The position numbers and the translations under genes were made by a program. A model generated the notes under the pieces. It did not search any database. It saw only the letters and a program-made list of their open reading frames with translations, and was not told where the DNA came from. A stretch of 64,000 nucleotides of DNA, taken from assembly GCA_004555335.1 (NCBI GenBank), contig SFII01000001.1, forward strand, positions 5,411 to 69,410. Reading direction: 5' to 3'. The DNA comes from Coriobacteriaceae bacterium (GTDB lineage Bacteria > Actinomycetota > Coriobacteriia > Coriobacteriales > Eggerthellaceae). Shown in pieces: positions 6,146 through 49,272 of the stretch; within the stretch, counting starts at the first letter, position 1; the number at the start of each line of letters is the position of its first letter.

Positions 6146-7303
6146 TTGAATCGAAGGAAGATAGTAATAGTCGGCGGGGGAGCCGCGGGTTTCGCCGCGG
6201 CGATAACCGCGGCGCGCCAAGGCTGCGACGTTCAGGTTATCGAGGCGGCCGAGCGCGTGGGGAACTCCATCAAGGTGACGGGGGATGGGCGCTGCAATAT
6301 CGCCAACTCGCACACTGCTGCGGACCTGTACTGGAATGGGTCTTTCGTGGAGCGGGCCTTTTCCCAGGTTTCCCCCCAGGATGCGCTCTCCTTCTTGGGA
6401 AGCTGCGGCTTGATGCTTCGGGAGGAAGCCCAGGGTAGGCTCTATCCCCTGGCGAATAAATCGACCTCCGTCATCGACGCCCTCCGCCTTTCCGCCGAAA
6501 GGGAAGGGGTGCGCGAGGTCTGCGGGAAGCATGCGGTCTCGCTTCGGCCCAAAGCGGGGGCTTGGCTGCTTCGCACCGAAGACGGTGAAAGCCGCACTTT
6601 CGATGCGGTTGTTGCCGCCTGCGGTGGAACGAGGCTTCCCGAGGGCTTTCTTCCCGATGGGATACAGGCCTTCCCCCAGCGTCCTTTGCTGGGACCGATG
6701 AAGACCTCCACCCAGCCGCTCAAGGGCTTGGACAAGGTGCGGGCGAAGTGCTCCGTGTCCGTAGGGGATCGCACCGAAGACGGGGAAGTCACCTTCAGGT
6801 CCTACGGCATCTCCGGTATCGCCGCCTTCAACATGACCCGTTTCGCGCGCAAGGGCGATGCCATCCGTTTGGATTTCCTCTCCCACATGCCCAGGGAGGC
6901 GTCGCTGCTCCTGCTCGAGCAGCGCATGGCTGCGCTCGACCCTTGTGATTGGCTGCAGTTGACCTGCGGCATGCTGCTTCCCCTGGTCGCCCGCGCGGTT
7001 TTGCGCCAGGCGGGCTTAGCCCCGGATAGCAGGCCGCGTCCGTGCGATCTTGCTGCCTTCGACCGTGCCCTGCGCGGTTTCGAGCTGGAATACCTGGGCA
7101 TCGGCGATCAGAAGCTCTGCCAGGTGCACAGGGGCGGCGTGCGCGTATCGCAGGTCGATCCCTCGAGTATGGCGCTTATAGGGTATCCCGGCCTGCATTG
7201 CGTGGGCGAGATGCTCGATGTCGATGGTCCATGCGGCGGCTACAACCTGCATTGGGCCTGGGTTTCCGGAATCATCGCGGGAAAGGCGGTGGCACATGAT
7301 TAG
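6146..7303 (+). CDS. FAD-dependent oxidoreductase, HI0933/BaiN-like (aminoacetone-oxidase family)
   Basis: TTG start. N-terminal dinucleotide fold KIVIVGGGAAGFAAAITAARQG, then TGDGRCNIAN, which is typical of the HI0933 family. Confidence 0.8.
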   Translation: MNRRKIVIVGGGAAGFAAAITAARQGCDVQVIEAAERVGNSIKVTGDGRCNIANSHTAADLYWNGSFVERAFSQVSPQDALSFLGSCGLMLREEAQGRLYPLANKSTSVIDALRLSAEREGVREVCGKHAVSLRPKAGAWLLRTEDGESRTFDAVVAACGGTRLPEGFLPDGIQAFPQRPLLGPMKTSTQPLKGLDKVRAKCSVSVGDRTEDGEVTFRSYGISGIAAFNMTRFARKGDAIRLDFLSHMPREASLLLLEQRMAALDPCDWLQLTCGMLLPLVARAVLRQAGLAPDSRPRPCDLAAFDRALRGFELEYLGIGDQKLCQVHRGGVRVSQVDPSSMALIGYPGLHCVGEMLDVDGPCGGYNLHWAWVSGIIAGKAVAHD

Positions 7304-9557
7304 GCTTGCGAATTGCCCGTGCTCGCTCGATGATGCCCTTCGGATCGATTTCCATGGACCCAACACCGAAGGACCGCTCGTTTCCATTGCCGCGCGCATG
7401 CTGGACGTTCCGGAGGGGAAGGTCCGCAGCGTGCAGGTGCTTAGGAGAAGCGTCGATGCCCGTAAGCGCTCGAACGTCCACCTGGTGCTCATGCTCGCCG
7501 TGGACCTTGCGGATCCCGCTGTCGAACGGGCCTTCATCGAATCCGGTGCCGCCCTGCCCTATGAACCCTACCGCGAGCTTGCCATCCCGCGTTTCGAAGA
7601 CGTCTCCGAAGAACGGCCCATCGTGGTGGGCTTCGGCCCGGCGGGCATGTTCTCCGCCCTTTACCTTGCCCGCGCGGGATTGCGTCCGATCGTGATCGAA
7701 CGCGGCGCCTGCGTCGAGAAGCGGCAGCAAGCGGTGCGTGCCTTCAACGAGGGGGCGGATCTTGATCCGGCATCGAACATCCAGTTCGGCGAAGGCGGTG
7801 CGGGCACCTTTTCCGACGGCAAGCTCACCACGGGAACGAAGAACCCCATGGGTCCCCACGTGCTCCGCTGGCTCTACGAGGCGGGTGCCCCCGCGGATAT
7901 CCTGATCGATGCGAAGCCCCATATAGGAAGCGATGTCCTGCCGGGCGTCGTGCGCAGCATCCGCAACCAGATCATCGACCTGGGGGGCCAGGTTCTGTTC
8001 GAGACCCGTTTGGCCGATCTGGAATTCGCCGATGGGGCGTTAAGCGCTGCCATCATCGAGGACGCGCAGGGATCGAAGCGGAGCATTCCCGCAAAAACCC
8101 TGCTTTTGGCCTGCGGCCATTCCGCGCGCGATACCTTCCGGATGCTCTACGGCCACGGGCTCATGATGGAGCAGAAGCCCTTTTCCATGGGCGTGCGCAT
8201 CGAGCATCTCCAAGATGACATGGATAAGAGCCTCTATGGCCGCTTTGCGGGGCATCCGGCCTTAGGTGCATCCGAATACAAGATGGCGGTGCATGTGGAC
8301 AAAACCCGTAGCGCCTATACCTTCTGCATGTGCCCGGGCGGCGACGTGGTCTGCGCGGCAAGCGAGGAAGGCGGCATCGTCACCAACGGCATGAGCAATC
8401 GCGCCCGCGATGGGAAAAATGCGAATGCCGCCCTGCTGGTGAATGTCGAGCCATCGGACTTCCCCGGAAGCCATCCCCTTGCCGGTGTCGATCTGCAGCG
8501 CCGGGTCGAGCGTGCGGCGTATGATGCGACGGCGCGGTCTTCCCACGGCGCTTACCGCGCTCCCGCCCAGACGGTAGGGGATTTCCTTTCCGGATCCCAC
8601 GGCAACGCGTCGAAGCGCGTTGCGCCCACCTATGCGCGGGGAGTGGAATGGGTCGACCTGCATCAGGTGCTTCCCCCCTTCGTGTGCCGGACCATGGAGC
8701 GTGCGCTTCCCCTGTTCGAGAGGAAGATATCGGGTTTCGCGTCCCCCGGCGCGGTGATGACCGCTCCGGAAACCCGCTCATCCTCGCCCGTGCGCATCTG
8801 CCGCAACCAGGCGTTCCAGGCTTACCGCGAAGACGACCCCGCCAAGCTGGGTTGCGGCATCTTCCCCTGCGGGGAGGGTCCGGGTTATGCGGGCGGCATC
8901 ATGTCCGCCGCGGCCGATGGCCTGCGTGTCGCGCAAGAGCTCGCATCCTTCGCTGCCGGGCGCGGCGATGTCGCGGATGCGGTCGAAGAGCTGCGGCGCG
9001 GGGGAACGGTACTCATGCCCACCGATACCGTCTACGGAATCGGCGTTTCGGTGCTCCATGCGGGCGTACCCGATGCGATCTTCCAGGCGAAGCGCCGTTC
9101 AGCGGGCAAGCCCGTTGCCTGGCTGGTCGATTCGGTCGAGGCGCTCGACGTCTACGGTGCCGATGTTCCCGAAGGGGTCCGGCGTCTCGCCCGCCAATGC
9201 TGGCCCGGCCCCCTGACTATCGTGGTCAAGGCCTCCCCGTCCGTTCCCGCTGCGTTTGCGAGCGGGGAGGGGACTATCGGGCTTCGCATGCCTGCGAACC
9301 AAACCGCCCTGCGCCTGATCAGGGGCGCAGGATCGCCCTTGGCGGTCAGTTCCGCGAACCTGTCCGGCTGCGAGGCGCCCAAGGATGCCGCCTCCGTGCC
9401 GCAGGAACTCGCCTCGAGCGTCGGTGCGTGCGTCGAGGATTCCGAAAAGAAGAGCGGGCTTGCCTCGACGGTCGTCAGCTGCGTGGATGGGCAGCTTCGC
9501 GTCTTGCGCGAGGGAGCCGTGGGTATCGATCTGATCAGGGAAATCATGCAGGCATAG
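7296..9557 (+). CDS. fusion protein: COG2509-type FAD-dependent protein (N) plus L-threonylcarbamoyladenylate synthase TsaC/YrdC domain (C)
   Basis: ATG 7296 overlaps the upstream stop. N-terminal part: VLRRSVDARK, GFGPAGMFSALYLARAG, GEGPGYAGGIMSAAADG. From about 8965 to the stop: VLMPTDTVYGIGV...GKPVAWLV...WPGPLTIVV...IGLRMP...PLAVSSANLSG, a YrdC-fold signature. There is no in-frame stop or start at the junction. Confidence 0.8.
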   Translation: MIRLANCPCSLDDALRIDFHGPNTEGPLVSIAARMLDVPEGKVRSVQVLRRSVDARKRSNVHLVLMLAVDLADPAVERAFIESGAALPYEPYRELAIPRFEDVSEERPIVVGFGPAGMFSALYLARAGLRPIVIERGACVEKRQQAVRAFNEGADLDPASNIQFGEGGAGTFSDGKLTTGTKNPMGPHVLRWLYEAGAPADILIDAKPHIGSDVLPGVVRSIRNQIIDLGGQVLFETRLADLEFADGALSAAIIEDAQGSKRSIPAKTLLLACGHSARDTFRMLYGHGLMMEQKPFSMGVRIEHLQDDMDKSLYGRFAGHPALGASEYKMAVHVDKTRSAYTFCMCPGGDVVCAASEEGGIVTNGMSNRARDGKNANAALLVNVEPSDFPGSHPLAGVDLQRRVERAAYDATARSSHGAYRAPAQTVGDFLSGSHGNASKRVAPTYARGVEWVDLHQVLPPFVCRTMERALPLFERKISGFASPGAVMTAPETRSSSPVRICRNQAFQAYREDDPAKLGCGIFPCGEGPGYAGGIMSAAADGLRVAQELASFAAGRGDVADAVEELRRGGTVLMPTDTVYGIGVSVLHAGVPDAIFQAKRRSAGKPVAWLVDSVEALDVYGADVPEGVRRLARQCWPGPLTIVVKASPSVPAAFASGEGTIGLRMPANQTALRLIRGAGSPLAVSSANLSGCEAPKDAASVPQELASSVGACVEDSEKKSGLASTVVSCVDGQLRVLREGAVGIDLIREIMQA

Positions 9558-9575
9558 GGCCTGCTGCAAGGAGAG

Positions 9576-10550
9576 ATGATGAGCGAATCCCGGATTATGG
9601 GCGGTTCGGTCCGCCGAAGCGAATTCTTCTTCCCCTCGAGTTTGGAGGGGTATTCCATCCACGCCGTGAAGTGGGAGCCTGCAGATGGCAGGGCGTTCGG
9701 CGTGGTCCAGCTCATCCATGGGATGGAAGAGCACATCGGGCGCTACGACGACTTCGCGCGGTTTTTGGCCATGCGGGGATTCGTCGTGTGCGGTTCGAGC
9801 CATATCGGACATGGCAGGAGCGTGCCTTCGCCAGATCGCATAAGCTGCCTGCCGGAACACGGCGCGCAGGTCATGCTGTCCGACGTCCATACGCTCAGGA
9901 AGAGGATGTCTTCCGAATATCCCGACCTGCCATATGCGATGTTCGGCCATTCCATGGGAAGCTTCCTTCTGCGCGTCTACCTCGCGCGCTTCGGGGAAGG
10001 GCTTGCCGGCGCCATCGTGTGCGGTACCGGGCAGCAGCCTCCTTTGGCGGCGAGATGCGCCAACGCGATCGCCCGGGGGATCGGCCGCACGAAGGGTTTC
10101 GACTACAAGAGCGCGATGCTCGACAAGCTGGTAACGGGGTCTTTCGCCAAGGGTGTGGAAAATCCCAGGACCGCCTTCGATTGGCTTTCCTGCGATCCGT
10201 CCGTGGTAGACGAATACATCGCCGATCCCGCATGCGGCGTGATGTTCTCTGCGGGGGGATACGCGTCGCTCACCGACCTGGTTGCCGAGGCGGCCGGCAA
10301 GGCGTGCGCCTCGCGAGTACCCGATGGCCTGCCCGTGTTGTTCATCGCCGGTGCGAAGGACCCTGTGGGCGACTTCGGGAAAGGGCCCGCTGCTGCGGCG
10401 GAGATGATGGACGGGGTATCGCGGGCAGATGTCTCCCTTATCATCTACGAGGAGATGCGCCACGAGATCCTGAACGAGCCCGATCGCATTTCCGTGTATT
10501 TCGATGCGCTCCGCTTCATCGAAGCGGCATGTGGAAAGGTGTCCCGATGA
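9576..10550 (+). CDS. alpha/beta hydrolase (lysophospholipase / monoacylglycerol lipase-like)
   Basis: RBS AAGGAGAG. Nucleophile elbow is GHSMGS. The HGMEEH and EEMRHEI patterns are typical of the lysophospholipase family. Confidence 0.8.
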   Translation: MMSESRIMGGSVRRSEFFFPSSLEGYSIHAVKWEPADGRAFGVVQLIHGMEEHIGRYDDFARFLAMRGFVVCGSSHIGHGRSVPSPDRISCLPEHGAQVMLSDVHTLRKRMSSEYPDLPYAMFGHSMGSFLLRVYLARFGEGLAGAIVCGTGQQPPLAARCANAIARGIGRTKGFDYKSAMLDKLVTGSFAKGVENPRTAFDWLSCDPSVVDEYIADPACGVMFSAGGYASLTDLVAEAAGKACASRVPDGLPVLFIAGAKDPVGDFGKGPAAAAEMMDGVSRADVSLIIYEEMRHEILNEPDRISVYFDALRFIEAACGKVSR

Positions 10551-12088
10551 CGTACGTTATCGCCCTCGACCAGGGAACCACTTCGTCGCGTGCCCTGCTG
10601 GTCGATCATGATTCGGTGGTGCGGGGGGTTGCCCAGAAGCCCTTCGCGCAGCATTTCCCCCAGCCCGGCTGGGTCGAGCACGATCCCTTCGACATCCTGG
10701 AAACGCAGATCGGGGTGTTGAACGATCTGATGGATAGGGAGGGTCTGGGTCCCGACGACATCGAATGCATCGGCATCACCAACCAGAGGGAAACCACCAT
10801 GCTCTGGGACAGGCGCACGGGTGACCCGGTGTGCAACGCCATCGTGTGGCAATGCAGGCGCACGGCCGATATCGTGGAAGCGGTCTGCGCCGAGCGCGGG
10901 GTTGCGGACTACATCACGGCCACGACGGGTCTTGTTCCCGATGCGTATTTTTCGGCCAGCAAGGTGAAGTGGATCTTGGATAACGTGCCCGGCGCGCGCG
11001 AGGCAGCGCAGATGGGCGATCTGCTGTTCGGCACCGTCGATACCTGGCTGATCTGGAACCTGACCGGCGGCAAGGTGCATGCGACGGATTACACCAATGC
11101 GAGCAGGACCATGCTCTTCGACATCCATAAGGGTTGCTGGGACGAAAGGCTCTGCCGGATGTTCGGCATCCCCATGCATGTCCTGCCCGAGGTGCGCCGC
11201 TCGTCGGATTGCTACGGGGTGACGGCATCGGAGGCGCCGGCGTCGCATCGCGGGCTCACCGGTCGCGGGCGGGATCTTCCCCGCATCCCGCAGGGCATCC
11301 GCATCTGCGGTGTTGCGGGCGACCAGCAGGCGGCCCTGTTCGGCCAGTGCTGCACCAGCGCGGGCAGGGCGAAGAACACCTACGGGACGGGTTGCTTCCT
11401 GCTCATGCATACGGGCAAGGTGGCGGTTTCTTCCCGCAACAACCTGATCACCACCATCGCCGCGAGTGCGCCGGGTGCCGAAGGACTGGAATACGCCCTC
11501 GAGGGGAGCGTGTTCATGGCAGGCGCCCTCATCCAGTGGCTTCGCGACGAGCTGGGTCTGATCGAATCGGTGGAGGAAAGCGAGCAGATGGCCTTGAGCG
11601 TGCCCGATTCCGCCGGCGTGTTCATCGTTCCGGCGTTCACGGGCCTGGGCGCTCCCTATTGGGATGCCGAAGCGCGCGGGGCGATTTACGGGCTCACGCG
11701 CGGCGCGCGCAGGGAGCACATCGTCAGGGCGGCGCTGGAATCGCTCGCCTTCCAGGTGAATGACCTGATCAGGGGGATGGAAGACGACGCCGGCTGCTGC
11801 TTGGAGCTTCTCGCCGTGGATGGCGGCGCGAGCCGCAACAACTTCCTCATGCAGTTCCAAAGCGACATCCTGCGCACCAGGCTGCAAAGGCCCGTCTCCA
11901 CCGAAACCACCGCCTTGGGCGCGGCATATCTTGCCGGTTTGCAGACGGGTTTCTGGCAAGATATGGGTGAGATATGCGCGCGGCGTTCGATCGAGCGCGA
12001 ATTCACGCCCGGGATGGATGCGTGCACCAGGGATGCGGCGGTGATGAAGTGGTCCCGCTGCATCGAGCGCACCCGGAGCACTTACTGA
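10547..12088 (+). CDS. glpK: glycerol kinase
   Basis: MTYVIALDQGTTSSRALL, GITNQRETT and GVAGDQQAALFGQ are all present. The ATG overlaps the hydrolase stop (ATGA). The listed 1146-aa ORF is upstream read-through of this frame. Confidence 0.95.
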   Translation: MTYVIALDQGTTSSRALLVDHDSVVRGVAQKPFAQHFPQPGWVEHDPFDILETQIGVLNDLMDREGLGPDDIECIGITNQRETTMLWDRRTGDPVCNAIVWQCRRTADIVEAVCAERGVADYITATTGLVPDAYFSASKVKWILDNVPGAREAAQMGDLLFGTVDTWLIWNLTGGKVHATDYTNASRTMLFDIHKGCWDERLCRMFGIPMHVLPEVRRSSDCYGVTASEAPASHRGLTGRGRDLPRIPQGIRICGVAGDQQAALFGQCCTSAGRAKNTYGTGCFLLMHTGKVAVSSRNNLITTIAASAPGAEGLEYALEGSVFMAGALIQWLRDELGLIESVEESEQMALSVPDSAGVFIVPAFTGLGAPYWDAEARGAIYGLTRGARREHIVRAALESLAFQVNDLIRGMEDDAGCCLELLAVDGGASRNNFLMQFQSDILRTRLQRPVSTETTALGAAYLAGLQTGFWQDMGEICARRSIEREFTPGMDACTRDAAVMKWSRCIERTRSTY

Positions 12089-42692: not shown

Positions 42693-43256
42693 ATGGCGCT
42701 CTATCTCATCGTGGGGCTGGGAAACCCCGGAGAAGAATACGAGCATACCCGCCACAATGCCGGTTTCGACGCAATCGATTTGCTCGCCGAAGAAGCGGGG
42801 GTGCGGTATTGGAAGACGGAATGCGGAGCCCTGACGGGAAAGGGCGTCCTTGCCGGCGATGATGTGGTGTTGGCAAAGCCCCAGAGTTTCGTGAACCTAT
42901 CGGGCGGACCGGTGAAGCAGCTCTGCAATGCTTACGGCGTCAAGCCCGATCACCTGATCGTGATCCACGACGATCTGGATATCCTGCCGGGTGGCATCCG
43001 CGTGAAGTTCGGAGGCGGCCACGCCGGGCACAACGGCCTGCGCTCCATCTGCGACAAGCTGGGAACGCGCGACTGGTTCCGTGTGCGCTGCGGCATCGGC
43101 CGTCCCCCTGGACGCATGCCCGTTGCCGACTTCGTCCTGAAGCGCCCTCGTGGGGAGGAATTGGAAGATTTCCGCTACTCCTGCGACAGGGCGGCATCGG
43201 CCGTGCCCTTCTTGATGGAAAACGGCCTGGAGAAGACCCAGGCGCGCTTCAACTGA
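42693..43256 (+). CDS. pth: peptidyl-tRNA hydrolase
   Basis: LIVGLGNPG..Y..TRHNAGF, DDLD...G..R.K..GG..GHNGL.S. RBS AGGAGG. Confidence 0.95.
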   Translation: MALYLIVGLGNPGEEYEHTRHNAGFDAIDLLAEEAGVRYWKTECGALTGKGVLAGDDVVLAKPQSFVNLSGGPVKQLCNAYGVKPDHLIVIHDDLDILPGGIRVKFGGGHAGHNGLRSICDKLGTRDWFRVRCGIGRPPGRMPVADFVLKRPRGEELEDFRYSCDRAASAVPFLMENGLEKTQARFN

Positions 43257-43334: not shown

Positions 43335-43360
43335 AAACGCACCCGCCGAGGTGCGTTTTC
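43335..43360 (+). terminator. rho-independent terminator after pth
   Basis: Stem AACGCACC / GGTGCGTT, followed by TTC. Confidence 0.6.
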
Positions 43361-43458
43361 GGTACAGGGGAACCCGGTTGCGCGTCCGCGTTGCGCCTGC
43401 AGCTGGGATTTGTGAGAAAATAAGCGGCGAGAAAACGCACAATGGAATAGGTCACGAC

Positions 43459-46400
43459 ATGTCTGCACGCTTTAACATCCTGCCGGCCGACGATCAGGCC
43501 GTTTCTGCATTGCAAACCAGTCTCGGCTTGCCCAGGTTCATCGCAACCACTTTGGTGGCACGCGGGGTATGCACTCCCCAGGCCGCCCGTGAATTCCTGA
43601 ACCCTTCCCTCGACCGCGATTGGGGCAATCCGTATGACATCCCCGGAATGGACGGGGTGGTCGAAGGCCTGGAAGGCGCCATACGGGCCGGAAGGCGCAT
43701 CGTCGTGTTCGGCGATTTCGATCTGGACGGCATCTCGGCGACTGCGGTGATGACCCGCGGGCTGCGCATGCTCGGCGCCGATGCCGTCCCATTCATCCCC
43801 CGCAGGTCGGACGAAGGCTACGGCATCACCGAAGCGGCGATAGAGCGCGTGATGGGGGAATCCCCCGATGTGCTGGTGACCGTCGACTGCGGTATCGCAT
43901 GCCGCGACGAGGTGCGGATCCTGCAGCGTCGCGGGGTGGAGGTGTTCATCACCGACCACCACGAGCCTGCCGATCTGGTGCCGGTCGATGTCCCCGTCTG
44001 CGACCCGAAGCTCGCCCCCGAATCACCGCAGTCCATCCTTGCGGGCGTCGGCGTGGCATTGAAGGTCATCCAGGCGCTCGGCGCCCGTTTCGGGCAGCCC
44101 CATCTCTGGCGCGAATACACCGACCTTGCAGCCCTGGGCACCATTGCCGACCTCATGCCCATGAAGGGCGACAACCGTGCGCTCGTCGCAGACGGCGTCG
44201 CGCGCATGAACGAGGCGCCCAGGCCCTGCATCGCGGCGCTTCTGGGCTGCGCAGGCGTTTTGGACAAGCCCGTTGCCGCGGTATCGCTTTCCTTCAGCAT
44301 CATCCCGCGCCTCAATGCCGCGGGCCGCATGGGCGATGCCCAGGTATCCTTGGACCTGTTGCTTTCCGATGATTTCGGGGAAGCGGCCGATAAGGCGGAG
44401 GAACTGGAGGGTATCAACGACCGCAGGCGCGCCATCGAGGCCGAATTGGTGGAGATCGCGATGGAGCAGGCGGTTGAAACCTACACGGGCCAGCGGGCTC
44501 TGGTGGTTTCCGGCGATGGCTGGCACGAGGGCGTGAAGGGTATCGTCGCAAGCCGGCTGGTGCGTACGTACGGCGTGCCTGTCATCCTGTTCACCATCGA
44601 CGAAGACGGGCAGGCAAGGGGTTCGGGGCGCAGCGTGGGCCACGTCAACCTGTTCAAGGCGGTCGAGAGCTGCTCCGATATCCTTACCCGTTTCGGTGGG
44701 CATGAGGCTGCGGTGGGCGTGACCCTGCCCGCCGACCGACTGGCGGAATTCCAAGACCGCCTTTGCGAATATATGGACAGCCTGCCCGAAGAGAACTTCC
44801 ATCCGCGCATCGCAATCGACAGCTGCGTCGACTTGTCCGAGTTGACCTTGGAAAACGTCGCCCTTCTGGACTCGCTGGCCCCCTTCGGCCAGGAAAACAG
44901 GCAACCTTGCTTCCTTGCGCGCGACGTGCTGCTCACGAAGGCCCGTGCGGTGGGTGCGGAAAAGAACCACTTCTCGTGCATGCTCACCGACGGCGTCAAT
45001 TCGGTTGCGGGAATCATGTTCCACGCTTCGGATATCGACATGCTCATGCGCTGCGACAGCGTGGTCAATGCGGCATTCGAAGTGCAGATCGACGAATGGC
45101 GCGGGAGGAAGAGCGTCAAGGCTATGATCGATTCTCTGGCTCCGGTGAAGATGTGCGGGGCCCTGGAGGCCTGCCTCGACCTGGATCGCGATTCCTTCGT
45201 GGCGGATCTGTATGCCTGCGGGGATTCCGTTGCGGCGCGCGAAGCGGGAAGCTTGGATTCGGGGGACGGGGAATCCGCCCACGAACTCGAGCAGGCAAGG
45301 GATGCATGGGAGGCGCGTATCGCCGAAAACCCCGGTTCCCTGCGTAAGCAGATCGTGCGCGCCCTGATCGGCGATGGGCAGCTGTTCAGGTCCCAGCGCC
45401 AGGTGCTCGATGCCTTGGGCAGGGGCGATTCCGTTCTGACCATCATGGCGACGGGAAGGGGCAAGTCGCTCACCTTCCAGACCTTCGCCGCGATGCAGGC
45501 GCTTTCCCGCCATCAGGCGAGCCTTCTGGTGTATCCGCTGCGCGCCCTCATTGCCGACCAGGCATTCCATATCACGCGCAGCCTGAGCAGGTTCGGGGTC
45601 ACGGCGGAGGTCCTGACGGGCGAATCCTCTCCCGACGAGCGCTGCCGCATCTTCGAGGGTCTGAGCCGTGGCGGGGTGGACATCGTGCTCACCACGCCCG
45701 AGTTCTTGGATATCCATGCGGAACAGTTCGCGAGCAGCGGGCGCATCGGCTTCCTCGTATGCGATGAGGCGCATCATATCGGACTTGCCAAAGCAGGCAA
45801 CAGGCCATCCTATGCGCGCATGGGGGAAGTGAAGCAGCGCCTGGGCAATCCTGCGGTATTGGCCCTGACTGCCACGGCGAATTCCGACATCGCCCGCGAT
45901 ATCCAGGAATCCCTCGGGATCAAGCGGCGCATCTTCGATGAGAGCCGCCGTCCCAACTTGAAGGTGGAAGACCGCCGCGGGATAAAGCGCAGGGAAAACT
46001 ACCTCGCCAACCTGATCGCGTCGGGGGAAAAGACGGTCGTCTATGTTAATTCCCGCCAGCAGTCGGTGTCCCTGGCGCGGCAGCTGCGTAAAATGGTCCC
46101 CCAGATGGCGCCCTTCGTCGGTTTCTACAATGCGGGGCTTTCCCGTGACGAGCGCAAGCGGGTCGAGGAGATGTTCAGGGACGGCGACCTGCATGTGCTG
46201 GTTTCCACGTCCGCCTTCGGCGAGGGGGTGAACATCCCCGACATCCGCCATGTGGTCCTGTACCATATGCCGTTCAACGAAATCGAATTCAACCAGATGA
46301 GCGGCAGGGCAGGCAGGGATGGCGAGGAGGCCGTGGTCCATTTCCTGTTCGGTCAGGACGACGCGTGCATCAACGAGCGCCTGCTGCTCGAATCCACGCC

Positions 46401-46797
46401 CGACCGCGACCATATGGCATGCGTATACCGCCAGCTCCGCACCATGCAGAGGGAGGCGGGACCGCGTCCGTTCGATGCGACGATTGCTGACATCGTTGCC
46501 GCCATCAACGATAATGGGGGCAGCCAGCAAACCGCTCCTGCCAGCGTGGCCTGCGCGATCTCCGTTTTCCGCGAGCTCGGCCTGGTCGAGACGGGTGCGG
46601 TTGGGGATGATGCGCGCCTGCGCTCCATACGCGTGGTCGATACCTGCCGGAAGGTGGAGCTTACCGATAGCGTGCGCTATAGAGAAGGGCTTGACGAGAT
46701 GGAGATCTTCCACTCGTTCTGCCAGTGGGTGCTTGCCAGCACCCAGGATGAGCTGCGCGACAGGATCATCGCGCCCATCCTGCCAGAGGAACTTTAG
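43459..46797 (+). CDS. recJ: RecJ single-stranded-DNA exonuclease fused to a RecQ-family helicase
   Basis: N-terminal half has DHH motifs VVFGDFDLDGISA, VDCG and ITDHHEP (43948-43965), plus DHHA1 GGHEAAVG. C-terminal half has Walker A MATGRGKS (45446-45469), DEAH VCDEAHHI (45757-45780), LALTATA, and the RecQ motif VI-like QMSGRAGRDG. It is a single uninterrupted 1112-aa frame. Confidence 0.85.
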   Translation: MSARFNILPADDQAVSALQTSLGLPRFIATTLVARGVCTPQAAREFLNPSLDRDWGNPYDIPGMDGVVEGLEGAIRAGRRIVVFGDFDLDGISATAVMTRGLRMLGADAVPFIPRRSDEGYGITEAAIERVMGESPDVLVTVDCGIACRDEVRILQRRGVEVFITDHHEPADLVPVDVPVCDPKLAPESPQSILAGVGVALKVIQALGARFGQPHLWREYTDLAALGTIADLMPMKGDNRALVADGVARMNEAPRPCIAALLGCAGVLDKPVAAVSLSFSIIPRLNAAGRMGDAQVSLDLLLSDDFGEAADKAEELEGINDRRRAIEAELVEIAMEQAVETYTGQRALVVSGDGWHEGVKGIVASRLVRTYGVPVILFTIDEDGQARGSGRSVGHVNLFKAVESCSDILTRFGGHEAAVGVTLPADRLAEFQDRLCEYMDSLPEENFHPRIAIDSCVDLSELTLENVALLDSLAPFGQENRQPCFLARDVLLTKARAVGAEKNHFSCMLTDGVNSVAGIMFHASDIDMLMRCDSVVNAAFEVQIDEWRGRKSVKAMIDSLAPVKMCGALEACLDLDRDSFVADLYACGDSVAAREAGSLDSGDGESAHELEQARDAWEARIAENPGSLRKQIVRALIGDGQLFRSQRQVLDALGRGDSVLTIMATGRGKSLTFQTFAAMQALSRHQASLLVYPLRALIADQAFHITRSLSRFGVTAEVLTGESSPDERCRIFEGLSRGGVDIVLTTPEFLDIHAEQFASSGRIGFLVCDEAHHIGLAKAGNRPSYARMGEVKQRLGNPAVLALTATANSDIARDIQESLGIKRRIFDESRRPNLKVEDRRGIKRRENYLANLIASGEKTVVYVNSRQQSVSLARQLRKMVPQMAPFVGFYNAGLSRDERKRVEEMFRDGDLHVLVSTSAFGEGVNIPDIRHVVLYHMPFNEIEFNQMSGRAGRDGEEAVVHFLFGQDDACINERLLLESTPDRDHMACVYRQLRTMQREAGPRPFDATIADIVAAINDNGGSQQTAPASVACAISVFRELGLVETGAVGDDARLRSIRVVDTCRKVELTDSVRYREGLDEMEIFHSFCQWVLASTQDELRDRIIAPILPEEL

Positions 46798-46803
46798 GAC
46801 TGA

Positions 46804-49272
46804 ATGACAATGGCTGAAGAAACGAAATACCAAGCGGTGGAAACCGCGGAGGTGATGCTCGGAGAGGGCATGAATTCCGCGGCGAAGAACGGTTGCTCCG
46901 AAGAGATGCTCGGAACCGCGCATTCCGCCGAATACAGCTTCACTTCGTCGGCGGCGGGCGCCGATCCCGCGAAGGTCACCAAATGCCAGTCTCCCGAAGA
47001 GCGCTTCGAGCGTCTGAGGGAGCTTGCATCCGAATACTTGGAGGAAAAGGACCTCGACTTCTTGGAGAGGGCCTTCAACTACGCCAACGAAGCCCACAAG
47101 GGCCAGTGCCGCAAGAGCGGCGAACCCTATATCACGCATCCCATCGAGGTCGCCATCATCCTGACCGACCTGCACATGGATGTGGAAACCCTGACTGCCG
47201 CCATCCTGCATGATACCGTTGAAGATACCGATGCCACCTTCGAAGAGGTTGCGAAGGTGTTCAACGAATCCGTCGCGCAGTTGGTAGAGGGCGTCACGAA
47301 GATCACCAGGATCGAAGTCGAGACCCTGACCGATCAGCAGGCCCAGACCATCCGCAAGATGCTCGTCGCCATGAACAAGGACATCCGAGTCATCGTCATC
47401 AAGCTTGCCGACCGCCTTCACAACATGCGAACCCTGTCTGCCCTGCGCGAGGACCGCCGTATCTTCAAGTCGCGTGAGACTTTGGAAATCTATGCGCCCA
47501 TCGCGCATCGCCTGGGTATCAATTCCATGAAGTGGGAGCTCGAGGACCTTGCCTTCTTCTACTTGGAGCCCGTCAAGTTCAAGCAGGTTTCCCGCCTGGT
47601 CGCCGAAAGCCGCCAGGAACGAGAGAAGTACCTCGCCTGCGTCATGAAAGAGCTCCAGGAGGAAATGGACTATCTGGGTATCGAATGCCAGATGATGGGC
47701 AGGCCCAAGCATCTGTATTCCATCTACCAGAAGATGGTCACCGGCGGTAAGGACTTCTCGGAAATCTACGACCTCATCGCCGTCCGCATCATCGTGAACT
47801 CGATCAACGAATGCTATTCGGCCCTCGGTGCGGTCCATTACCTGTGGCATCCCATGCCCGGGCGCTTCAAGGACTACATCGCGATGCCCAAGTACAACAT
47901 GTACCAGAGCCTGCATACCACCGTTATCGGTCCTGCTGCAAGGCCCTTGGAAGTGCAGATCCGTACCGAGGAGATGCACGAGATGAGCGAATACGGCGTT
48001 GCCGCCCACTGGAGGTACAAGGAAGGCGGCGGCGGGAAGAAGGATGCCGCCTTCGACCAGACCCTGGCATGGCTGCGCCAGATGGTCGACTGGCAGGACG
48101 AGACCCGCGACTCCCGCGAGTTCTTGAAGACCCTCAAGGTCGATCTTGCGGATTCCGAGGTGTACGTGTTCACCCCGAAGGGCGAGGTCGTCAGCCTGAG
48201 GGCGGGGTCCACTCCCGTCGACTTCGCCTATGCCATCCACACCGAAGTGGGCAACCATTGCGTGGGCGCCAAGGTGAACGCCGCGATTGTCCCCCTGTCC
48301 TACGAGCTCAAGATGGGCGACCGCGTGGAAATCCTGACCCAGAAGAGCGCGGCTCCCAACCGCAACTGGATCACGATGGTGAAAACGCCCAGCGCGCGAA
48401 GCAAGATCCGCTCGTATTTCAGCAAGGCATCGCGTTCGGATGATTTGCAGCTCGGCCACGATAAGCTGGTGCGCGAGATGCGCAAGAACGGCATGGGCAT
48501 CAACAATGCTCCCGGCCAGCGCGCCCTGCGCGAAGTCGCCGAGCATCTGGGCTTCAAGGACGTCGACGAGATGCTCATCGGCATCGGTTGCGATCGCGAG
48601 AGCGTCCAGCATGTTGCGAACCGCATGATCAAGCTCATGGTCGACCGTGAGGCGGAGGCGGAAGCGGAAGCCCAGCGCAGCTACAGCATGGGCATCAATA
48701 CGGGCAGGGCTATCCCCTTGCTCACCAACGTGAAGCATCCCAGCAAGAGGGAGACCCATTCCAGCAGCGGTATCGTGGTCAAGGGCGTGGAAGGCGTTCT
48801 CGTGCGCTTGGCGAATTGCTGCAATCCCGTTCCCGGCGATGACATCATGGGATTCGTCACCCGCGGCCGCGGCGTTTCCGTGCACAGGAGCGACTGCCCC
48901 AACGCGCAATCCCTCCAGTCTCAGAAAGAGCGCATCATCGATGTATCCTGGGATGCCAACCCCAAGGGCGATACCACGTACAAGGCGGAAGTGGTCATCG
49001 AGGCCGTCGACCGCATGAACCTGCTTCGCGATGTCATCGCGGTGCTTTCCGAAGAGGGGGCCAATGTGCTCTCGTCCTCTTCACGCGTGTCTCCCCGCGA
49101 CAATATGGCGGTGTTCAGGTTCCTCTTCCAGGTGAGCGACGTCGGGGCTATCAACAGCATCATCAGGAAGGCCGCGGCGGTCCATGGAGTCTTCGATGTC
49201 CACAGGACCATGCCGGGTGAAGATCCTGCCGCGGATGCGCGTAAGGCGATGAAGAAGGGAAGCATCAAGTGA
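46804..49272 (+). CDS. relA: bifunctional (p)ppGpp synthetase/hydrolase (RelA/SpoT homologue)
   Basis: HD domain (HPIEVAIIL...LHDTVEDT), synthetase domain (YIAMPKYNMYQSLHTTV), then TGS and ACT-like C-terminal regions. There is an N-terminal extension of about 65 aa. Confidence 0.95.
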   Translation: MTMAEETKYQAVETAEVMLGEGMNSAAKNGCSEEMLGTAHSAEYSFTSSAAGADPAKVTKCQSPEERFERLRELASEYLEEKDLDFLERAFNYANEAHKGQCRKSGEPYITHPIEVAIILTDLHMDVETLTAAILHDTVEDTDATFEEVAKVFNESVAQLVEGVTKITRIEVETLTDQQAQTIRKMLVAMNKDIRVIVIKLADRLHNMRTLSALREDRRIFKSRETLEIYAPIAHRLGINSMKWELEDLAFFYLEPVKFKQVSRLVAESRQEREKYLACVMKELQEEMDYLGIECQMMGRPKHLYSIYQKMVTGGKDFSEIYDLIAVRIIVNSINECYSALGAVHYLWHPMPGRFKDYIAMPKYNMYQSLHTTVIGPAARPLEVQIRTEEMHEMSEYGVAAHWRYKEGGGGKKDAAFDQTLAWLRQMVDWQDETRDSREFLKTLKVDLADSEVYVFTPKGEVVSLRAGSTPVDFAYAIHTEVGNHCVGAKVNAAIVPLSYELKMGDRVEILTQKSAAPNRNWITMVKTPSARSKIRSYFSKASRSDDLQLGHDKLVREMRKNGMGINNAPGQRALREVAEHLGFKDVDEMLIGIGCDRESVQHVANRMIKLMVDREAEAEAEAQRSYSMGINTGRAIPLLTNVKHPSKRETHSSSGIVVKGVEGVLVRLANCCNPVPGDDIMGFVTRGRGVSVHRSDCPNAQSLQSQKERIIDVSWDANPKGDTTYKAEVVIEAVDRMNLLRDVIAVLSEEGANVLSSSSRVSPRDNMAVFRFLFQVSDVGAINSIIRKAAAVHGVFDVHRTMPGEDPAADARKAMKKGSIK

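Follow-up and report, generated by a model that had tools for sequence, protein, structure and literature searches.

What does a gene do that occupies the place of a housekeeping recJ and reads on, in the same frame, into a helicase? Such a gene lies in a 64,000-nt window (the whole stretch of DNA analysed here) on contig SFII01000001.1 of Coriobacteriaceae bacterium (Eggerthellaceae; assembly GCA_004555335.1). A single open reading frame (ORF) at positions 43459-46797 encodes one polypeptide made up of the exonuclease RecJ, a linker and a RecQ-like helicase. The conserved motifs are intact in both halves, the helicase half has the RecQ-core fold, the gene is transcribed and its position is a housekeeping one. 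The product is probably an active, coupled helicase-nuclease for recombinational repair or replication fork processing, a reading drawn from sequence and structural models to which we assign a probability of about 0.7.

An intact gene with two conserved halves

The fusion gene is composed of the following parts, with residue numbers of the encoded protein.

43459..46797, forward strand: whole coding sequence (RecJ, linker and RecQ-like helicase), single ORF of 1112 residues
43696..44142, forward strand: RecJ DHH domain, residues 80-228, with DFDLDG, VDCG and TDHHEP (Pfam PF01368, E 1.3e-20)
44494..44775, forward strand: RecJ DHHA1 domain, residues 346-439, with the GGH motif (Pfam PF02272, E 1.6e-15)
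44815..45132, forward strand: RecJ OB-fold (RecJ_OB), residues 453-558 (Pfam PF17768, E 9.3e-24)
45133..45345, forward strand: linker, residues 559-629, lineage-specific and partly helical, with neither a Pfam match nor HIRAN
45346..45891, forward strand: helicase lobe 1, residues 630-811 (Pfam DEAD on residues 645-811, E 3e-20)
45997..46323, forward strand: helicase lobe 2, residues 847-955, with motif VI QMSGRAGRDG (Pfam Helicase_C, E 3.3e-24)
46354..46458, forward strand: helical hairpin, residues 966-1000, at the position of the RecQ Zn subdomain (AlphaFold2 (AF2) model of the helicase half)
46471..46638, forward strand: winged-helix-like domain, residues 1005-1060, made of a strand, two helices and a beta-hairpin (predicted secondary structure of the models)
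46672..46770, forward strand: two family-specific C-terminal helices, residues 1072-1104, behind SVRYREGL (model)

The frame given by the ORF lister (43351..46797, forward strand) opens at a GTG and would encode 1148 residues. The ATG at 43459 is the right start, because the N-terminus that it yields, MSARFNIL, agrees with the consensus MSAQFNI of 32 homologues. The initial annotation, made from the sequence alone, had placed a single 1112-residue polypeptide at these same positions, and both the ORF listing and the homologue N-terminus bear this out. All the motifs that it quoted are present (DFDLDG, VDCG, TDHHEP, GGHE, ATGRGKS, DEAHH, TATA and NQMSGRAGRDG), and the Pfam and NCBIfam domain search recovers its succession of RecJ, a linker of about 70 residues and a helicase in one frame. 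It had pointed to 45130-45340 as the place where a split into two genes would show, and neither a stop nor a frameshift lies there.

Could a frameshift or a misassembly have merged two neighbouring genes into a single ORF? Such an origin might be suspected from one related metagenome-assembled genome (MAG), L082, in which recJ and the helicase are called as two genes, and from the shortened frames of two further loci (L073 and L076). It is nevertheless effectively refuted by independent DNA and RNA contigs without indels. An 8473-bp metagenome contig spans 42600-47804 with six substitutions and no indel, and metatranscriptome contigs 44599-48126 and 44552-45609 bridge the RecJ/helicase junction, libraries of such a type being able to contain DNA. 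Moreover, 97 sequences are members of the 90%-identity cluster to which the window protein belongs. We also surveyed the loci of the best 80 of at least 590 species genomes that carry a relative of the helicase half, taking one genome per species. RecJ and helicase share an open frame in 78 of them, including isolates of Gordonibacter, Raoultibacter, Slackia, Adlercreutzia, Olsenella and Collinsella, and a contig end truncates the remaining two. On the strength of these contigs and of the conservation across genomes, we rejected an artefact, whose probability is vanishingly small. The fusion is real and transcribed, and its sequence is seen in metagenomes of pig, rat and other gut samples and of wastewater.

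High-depth contigs of two metagenomes match about 20 nt on either side of a 75-nt skip (43946-43965 and 44041-44064), inside the DHH-motif coding region of the fusion gene. They most likely come from the recJ of another organism that has short conserved stretches, and are no variant of the gene described here.

By its sequence, the N-terminal half is a complete housekeeping RecJ, predicted to be a 5'->3' exonuclease on single-stranded DNA (ssDNA). The NCBIfam recJ equivalog model TIGR00644 matches residues 25-559 with 479.1 bits against a cutoff of 396.9, and scores 452 bits with the Collinsella orthologue. In an alignment of 65 Coriobacteriia sequences, D86, D88, D90, D143, D166, H167, H168, D231, G413, G414 and H415 are invariant, as are the ligands of metal and phosphate, and the DHH-family catalytic motifs (DxDxDG, D, DHH, D and GGH) are intact in 150 out of 150 representatives. 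The half aligns to the RecJ structures of Staphylococcus aureus (8y30), Deinococcus radiodurans (5f54) and Thermus thermophilus. Since these alignments end at about residues 560-573 of the fusion, it has no counterpart of the C-terminal domain with which D. radiodurans RecJ binds the tail of the ssDNA-binding protein SSB (PMC4846377).

The helicase half aligns to residues 11-355 of Escherichia coli RecQ, i.e. to its two RecA-like lobes. Lobe 1 contains Q646 of motif 0, a GRGKS Walker A with K669, DEAH at 769-772, the loop HHIGLAKAGNRPSY and TAT at 804-806. Across the 65 Coriobacteriia sequences, Q646, T665-L671 (including K669), D769, E770, H772, H773 and T804-T806 are invariant, together with Q946, G949, R950, G952, R953 and G955 of motif VI. 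The same holds for F1037, E1039, L1040 and G1041 in the winged-helix-like unit and for S1071, E1076, G1077, P1106 and P1109 at the C-terminus. The AF2 model of residues 620-1112, built from a 20-sequence alignment, has a predicted local distance difference test (pLDDT) score of 90.4 and a predicted template modelling score (pTM) of 0.83. When it is submitted to Foldseek, the top 50 matches in the PDB are all RecQ, RECQ1, RECQL5, WRN or BLM; the bacterial RecQ cores 4tmu and 1oyw are aligned in 515-518 columns over 511-516 residues (E 6e-23 to about 1e-22, TM 0.57-0.62). As modelled, the helicase half keeps the RecQ catalytic-core fold, including the winged-helix region. The full-length model places linker helices at 567-571, 575-586 and 603-623.

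A RecQ-like motor, or an appendage of RecJ?

The architecture is found across Coriobacteriia and in some Bacillota, as revealed by the taxonomic survey that the initial annotation had proposed. The same six Pfam domains recur along the entire protein in more than 120 further 90%-identity clusters, whose identity is 62-85%, and 83 of the best 150 representatives of a 50% clustering are full RecJ-helicase fusions at 28-57% identity. Eggerthellaceae relatives include Raoultibacter, Gordonibacter, Slackia, Adlercreutzia, Paraeggerthella and Enteroscipio, and identity of the helicase half is at most 64% in all genomes among the matches listed. Of the 83 fused representatives, about 70 keep Walker A, DEAH, TAT and motif VI, down to about 32% identity. 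Because both active sites are invariant over deep divergence, a bifunctional enzyme is supported. Three types can be distinguished.

Type (i): short linker (58-71 residues in Eggerthellaceae); Eggerthellaceae, including the window protein, and some Collinsella
Type (ii): linker of 165-196 residues with Pfam HIRAN; 10 of 38 Coriobacteriia sequences (Atopobiaceae such as Olsenella and Parafannyhessea, and other Coriobacteriales), and Bacillota
Type (iii): Walker A and DEAH lost, RecJ intact, with in addition a class of about 850 residues with one RecA lobe; Bacillota and Eubacteriales MAGs

Type (ii) accounts for nearly all Bacillota homologues among the matches listed (e.g. Peptococcaceae, Thermincola, Dendrosporobacter and Clostridia MAGs). 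Proteins of about 1200 residues with HIRAN between RecJ_OB and the helicase are exemplified by P0149, P0167, P0183, P0210 and P0260, and the HIRAN-bearing loci are L057, L061, L067-L069, L072, L075, L079, L080 and L083. The ATPase-dead representatives of type (iii) (P0181, P0201, P0204, P0208-P0210, P0214, P0215, P0218, P0220, P0221, P0224 and P0250) have also lost motif VI and have kept the RecJ catalytic motifs and the C-terminal winged helix and helices. From its sequence, their module looks like a pseudo-helicase appendage, in which the winged helix and the terminal helices are the best-conserved part; the helices at 1072-1104 are kept even where the ATPase is dead. In P0239, P0247, P0253 and about 30 other representatives (834-914 residues), RecJ carries a C-terminal extension of about 300 residues. 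A lone Helicase_C-like RecA lobe, weakly similar to WRN/RecQ (E ~3e-6), is present in P0239 and several others, and this class of about 850 residues may represent one more step in the decay of the fusion. Its comparison with the C-terminal domain of S. aureus RecJ (8y30) gave no sequence match past residue ~560.

Is the helicase half of the window protein, then, a true RecQ? The initial annotation had called it a RecQ-family helicase without an HRDC domain. Its second statement is confirmed by the Pfam search, in which HRDC has no match in the window protein or in 38 Coriobacteriia sequences, the chain ending 50 residues past the winged helix; many RecQ helicases, though not all, have this domain. 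RQC likewise has no Pfam match in the same proteins; in the model of the window protein, the winged-helix-like pattern lies at 1005-1060. As for the family name, it is favoured by the nearest relatives and by the fold, and RecQ models are the next-best NCBIfam matches to the helicase half (residues 630-997) after the recJ model. It is not upheld by the scores or by two structural hallmarks, and the same evidence weighs against an active, coupled enzyme. TIGR00614 (recQ_fam) reaches 196.6 bits on residues 641-988 for a cutoff of 219.8, and TIGR01389 (the RecQ equivalog) 198.8 bits for a cutoff of 640.2; the Collinsella orthologue also stays below both cutoffs (182.6 and 189.3 bits, respectively). 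RecQ_Zn_bind has no Pfam match in any of the 38 Coriobacteriia sequences, window protein included, and conserved cysteines are absent at residues 956-1004 in the alignment of 65 sequences, which indicates that the Zn site has been lost. Between motifs II and III, the aromatic-rich loop is degenerate (DEAHHIGLAKAGNRPSY versus DEAHCISQWGHDFRPEY in E. coli RecQ; in the alignment, HHIGLAKAGNRPSY stands opposite HCISQWGHDFRPEY), with only R782 and Y785 conserved. In E. coli RecQ, the Zn cysteines and the aromatic-rich loop are tied to folding, DNA binding and the coupling of ATPase to unwinding. According to a published description (PMC3378886), the extended RecQ family has a tetracysteine Zn-binding domain as a signature. 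To these points is added the full-length AF2 model, in which the halves are not confidently arranged (pTM 0.50) and the RecJ OB domain has a pLDDT below 50. Finally, because the module persists in Bacillota relatives whose Walker A and DEAH are lost, the sequences indicate that it has some ATP-independent role.

Motif 0 reads LFRSQ in the window protein, the F and R that flank Q646 varying within the family. In the PADLOC models, which have no curated cutoffs, DpdF (206 bits) and PsyrT (189 bits) match residues 630-999 at the level of RecQ itself (199 bits); the NCBIfam DpdF model gives 109.6 bits against a cutoff of 550. Since the scores fall below the cutoffs, the Zn module is gone, the loop is degenerate and the similarity to DpdF and PsyrT is about as great, "RecQ-family" is too strong. 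Fold and nearest relatives do support "RecQ-like", for a helicase that is no demonstrated member of the RecQ family.

These observations could also be read as those of a non-unwinding accessory of RecJ, either a translocase on ssDNA that removes SSB or secondary structure in front of the nuclease, or a platform that binds DNA or a partner. Such a module would stand in for the SSB-binding C-terminal domain of other RecJs. Loss of the Zn site and of the aromatic-rich loop would fit this role, as would the missing counterpart of the D. radiodurans SSB-binding domain (PMC4846377) past residues 560-573. So would retention of the module in the ATPase-dead relatives and in the one-lobe class of about 850 residues, and the fact that the winged helix and terminal helices are the best-conserved part in these relatives. 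However, all ATPase and helicase motifs are invariant over deep divergence in the lineage of the window, pointing to selection for an ATP-driven motor. As modelled, the full RecQ catalytic-core fold is also kept, including the winged helix that RecQ uses at the duplex junction. We therefore consider an accessory role unlikely and favour the active helicase-nuclease.

Some further sequences deserve mention. Stand-alone orthologues of the helicase were considered and discarded, the "helicase-only" representatives being mostly fragments of fused genes. The open frame of the fusion starts as late as about RecJ residue 385 or 411 in two loci, L073 (Cryptobacterium sp. CAG:338) and L076; a pseudogene, a frameshift or an erroneous assembly of the RecJ half could be behind this. 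Ten "cleanbin" MAGs (L025, L027, L042, L044, L045, L057, L060, L062, L065 and L070) contain typical Coriobacteriia recJ-helicase-relA loci under the labels Methanomethylophilaceae archaeon, Anaerovoracaceae, Prevotella, Oscillibacter, Bacteroidaceae, Acutalibacteraceae, Alloprevotella, Agathobacter and Subdoligranulum; these bins are probably mislabelled or contaminated. P0162 (1848 residues, on contigs of up to 3.2 Mb) has three tandem RecJ-like units (DHH, DHHA1 and RecJ_OB) and a Toprim-like segment, an architecture unrelated to the RecJ-helicase fusion.

The recJ-relA locus

The window is a housekeeping chromosomal region of about 60% GC, with tsaC, glpK, ATP synthase, dnaE, glmU, prs, pth, the fusion gene, relA/spoT and a metallo-beta-lactamase (MBL)-fold hydrolase. 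The features closest to the fusion gene are the following.

42693..43256, forward strand: pth (TIGR00447), upstream neighbour, no conserved part of the unit
43335..43358, no strand assigned: GC-rich hairpin with a 10-bp stem and flanking T/A runs, in the gap between pth and the fusion gene (pattern match only)
46804..49272, forward strand: relA/spoT (TIGR00691, 830 bits), beginning 7 nt past the fusion stop codon
49269..49967, forward strand: MBL-fold hydrolase, conserved downstream neighbour

The fusion gene and relA/spoT are probably co-transcribed, and their boundary is bridged by RNA contigs 44599-48126 and 46486-47347. The hairpin is terminator-like on both strands, which suggests separate transcripts for pth and for fusion-relA, the latter from its own promoter. 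Among the 80 loci surveyed, relA lies immediately downstream in about 75, while pth lies immediately upstream in only about 12. In Gordonibacter, Collinsella, L081, L082 and Thermincola, too, the hydrolase comes after relA. From the recJ-relA synteny, the initial annotation had deduced orthology to the housekeeping RecJ, and the survey agrees. Its remark that the gene sits in the slot after pth, where mfd is found in many bacteria, turned out to concern an incidental adjacency, and we rejected it; neither an Mfd-like nor a second RecJ- or RecQ-like sequence was found in the window.

Three relatives help to define the slot. In L081, an environmental Coriobacteriia MAG (8001-9701), the order is tgt-yajC-secD-secF-recJ-relA-MBL, with a RecJ of 566 residues and no helicase. 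In Thermincola ferriacetica (Bacillota), it is tgt-yajC-secDF, a RecJ-HIRAN-helicase gene of 1233 residues, relA, dtd and MBL; in the window, the upstream neighbour is pth and not secDF. In L082, a Coriobacteriales MAG (8001-11877), a recJ of 629 residues and a helicase of 628 residues are called as adjacent genes before relA, the helicase being 36% identical to residues 642-1110 of the window protein (E 3e-102). Because the unfused gene of L081, the fused one of Thermincola and the split pair of L082 all occupy the recJ-relA slot, the fused gene is, as judged from these sequences, an orthologue of the housekeeping recJ with a helicase module appended at its 3' end. The frame of the L082 helicase is open 128 nt back into the 3' end of recJ and one indel would fuse both, so that a true split is indistinguishable from an assembly indel. 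The Rosetta-stone fusion of a functional pair put forward in the initial annotation is hence plausible, with adjacent recJ and helicase genes in L082 as an example, but that example is not secure.

The context also bears on the similarity to DpdF and PsyrT. A mobile anti-phage helicase-nuclease akin to these proteins would account for the PADLOC scores on residues 630-999. Yet the PADLOC models matched are those of generic RecQ-like helicases, neither a dpd cluster nor psyrA is nearby (the neighbours being glmU, prs, pth, relA, the MBL hydrolase and dnaE), the synteny is vertical across the whole class, and relatives occur on just 2 of 2.9 million viral contigs. The generic models, the housekeeping context and the viral-contig scan thus make a defence system highly improbable.

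Elsewhere in the window, ORF-lister frames 7218-9557 and 8648-12088 overlap and exceed their genes, an open-frame artefact of high GC. The TsaC match covers only residues 584-774 of the former and the GlpK match only residues 635-1143 of the latter.

Proposed coupling of unwinding and degradation, and its known counterparts

In textbooks, resection in the RecF pathway is the work of two proteins, RecQ and RecJ. In the single chain described here, the helicase half would load on the 3'-ended strand at a DNA end, a gap or a fork and travel 3'->5' while hydrolysing ATP. The 5' end of the displaced strand would thread into the RecJ half and be degraded 5'->3', both activities advancing in the same direction along the duplex. 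Because a 3'->5' motor and a 5'->3' exonuclease move the same way, such a tether would be mechanically coherent and would ensure a 1:1 coupling. The product would be 3' ssDNA for RecFOR/RecA or, at blocked forks, a trimmed nascent lagging strand, and a single chain would do the job of separate RecQ and RecJ in the RecF pathway. The polarity of the helicase, the coupling of the activities and the pathway are what we infer here. According to PMC4846377, which cites PMC4260596, RecJ alone resects 5'-tailed DNA, whereas blunt and 3'-tailed ends need RecQ, a 3'->5' helicase. The same paper mentions that a direct contact between RecJ and RecQ was not detected in D. radiodurans. A covalent link would supply this coupling.

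HIRAN is a 3'-end-binding module in HLTF and Rad5, and its location between nuclease and helicase in sister lineages fits ssDNA/double-stranded DNA (dsDNA) junctions at gaps or forks. The same enzyme could thus have stalled forks and post-replicative gaps as its main substrates instead of double-strand ends, degrading the nascent lagging strand and enlarging gaps. This preference would be in line with HIRAN in 10 of 38 Coriobacteriia and in Bacillota homologues, and with the processing of blocked forks by E. coli RecQ and RecJ (Courcelle and Hanawalt 1999, as cited in PMC4846377 and PMC4663267). Nevertheless, the window protein has no HIRAN according to Pfam and its sequence does not discriminate end from fork substrates, leaving the preference less likely than not.

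How does a coupled helicase-nuclease of this kind compare with known systems? The RecQ and RecJ of E. coli and D. radiodurans are the same two enzyme types, combining unwinding with degradation of the 5' strand (PMC4260596, PMC4846377). With respect to this pair, the RecJ half is orthologous and stands in the recJ locus, and the helicase half has the RecQ-core fold. The window enzyme differs in being one polypeptide, in a helicase devoid of Zn site, aromatic-rich loop and HRDC, and, compared with D. radiodurans RecJ, in a nuclease half devoid of the SSB-binding C-terminal domain. Human WRN is likewise a single chain that combines an exonuclease with a RecQ-type helicase, and WRN helicase cores rank among the top sequence and fold matches of the window helicase. 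The WRN nuclease is, however, an N-terminal DnaQ-like 3'->5' enzyme, in contrast to the DHH-family 5'->3' RecJ, and the two fusions arose independently. The idea of resecting ends with a processive motor physically linked to a strand-specific nuclease is common to AddAB, RecBCD, AdnAB and Dna2. Unlike the window protein, they use superfamily 1 motors and PD-(D/E)XK nucleases, are mostly multi-subunit and in some cases Chi-regulated; no homology of the window protein to these four systems was seen. DinG with an N-terminal DEDD exonuclease (S. aureus and Bacillus subtilis; PMC12345164, PMC12525004) is another Gram-positive superfamily 2 (SF2) helicase-exonuclease fusion, but its XPD-like 5'->3' helicase and 3'->5' nuclease both have polarities opposite to those expected here. 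Mycobacterium smegmatis RqlH (PMC3378886) is also an actinobacterial RecQ-like protein without HRDC and with a non-canonical extra domain, although it keeps the tetracysteine Zn domain, bears a ComF-like domain at its C-terminus and has no RecJ attached. Finally, HLTF and Rad5 combine HIRAN with an SF2 motor, and the sister lineages of the fusion family have HIRAN directly before such a motor. HLTF is a SNF2-type dsDNA translocase with a RING and no nuclease, whereas the window protein itself has no HIRAN.

We tentatively suggest, at somewhat less than even odds, that the RecJ-(HIRAN)-RecQ-like proteins form an ancient, undescribed single-chain family for resection or fork processing that may be the only RecQ-type helicase of its hosts. 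This family has its place at the housekeeping recJ locus in Coriobacteriia and in several lineages of Bacillota. Its decay series would lead from an active motor through an ATPase-dead pseudo-helicase to a single RecA-like lobe. No second helicase was found in 844 kb of retrieved loci, a result that says little, being limited to these loci. Helicase-nuclease fusions as a class are already known (WRN, exonuclease-DinG, Dna2 and AddAB). In full-text searches, with most subscription-journal papers outside their coverage, neither a RecJ-RecQ nor a RecJ-HIRAN-helicase fusion was found described. Public databases do contain the sequences, but under a wrong label: NCBI, UniRef and JGI name all sub-architectures merely "single-stranded-DNA-specific exonuclease RecJ".

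To conclude, the class-wide covalent fusion provides independent evolutionary evidence that RecQ and RecJ act on the same DNA molecule simultaneously, and offers a compact one-protein system for studying the coupling of unwinding to 5'-strand degradation. The HIRAN-containing and ATPase-dead relatives are ready comparative material and, if the family is indeed an ancient one, its decay series would record a helicase turning into a structural appendage of RecJ. Actinomycetota that are common in the gut of humans and animals carry the fusion (Eggerthella relatives, Gordonibacter, Slackia, Adlercreutzia, Collinsella and Olsenella). Since it is annotated only as "RecJ", genome-based repair inventories will miss the RecQ-like helicase of these bacteria.

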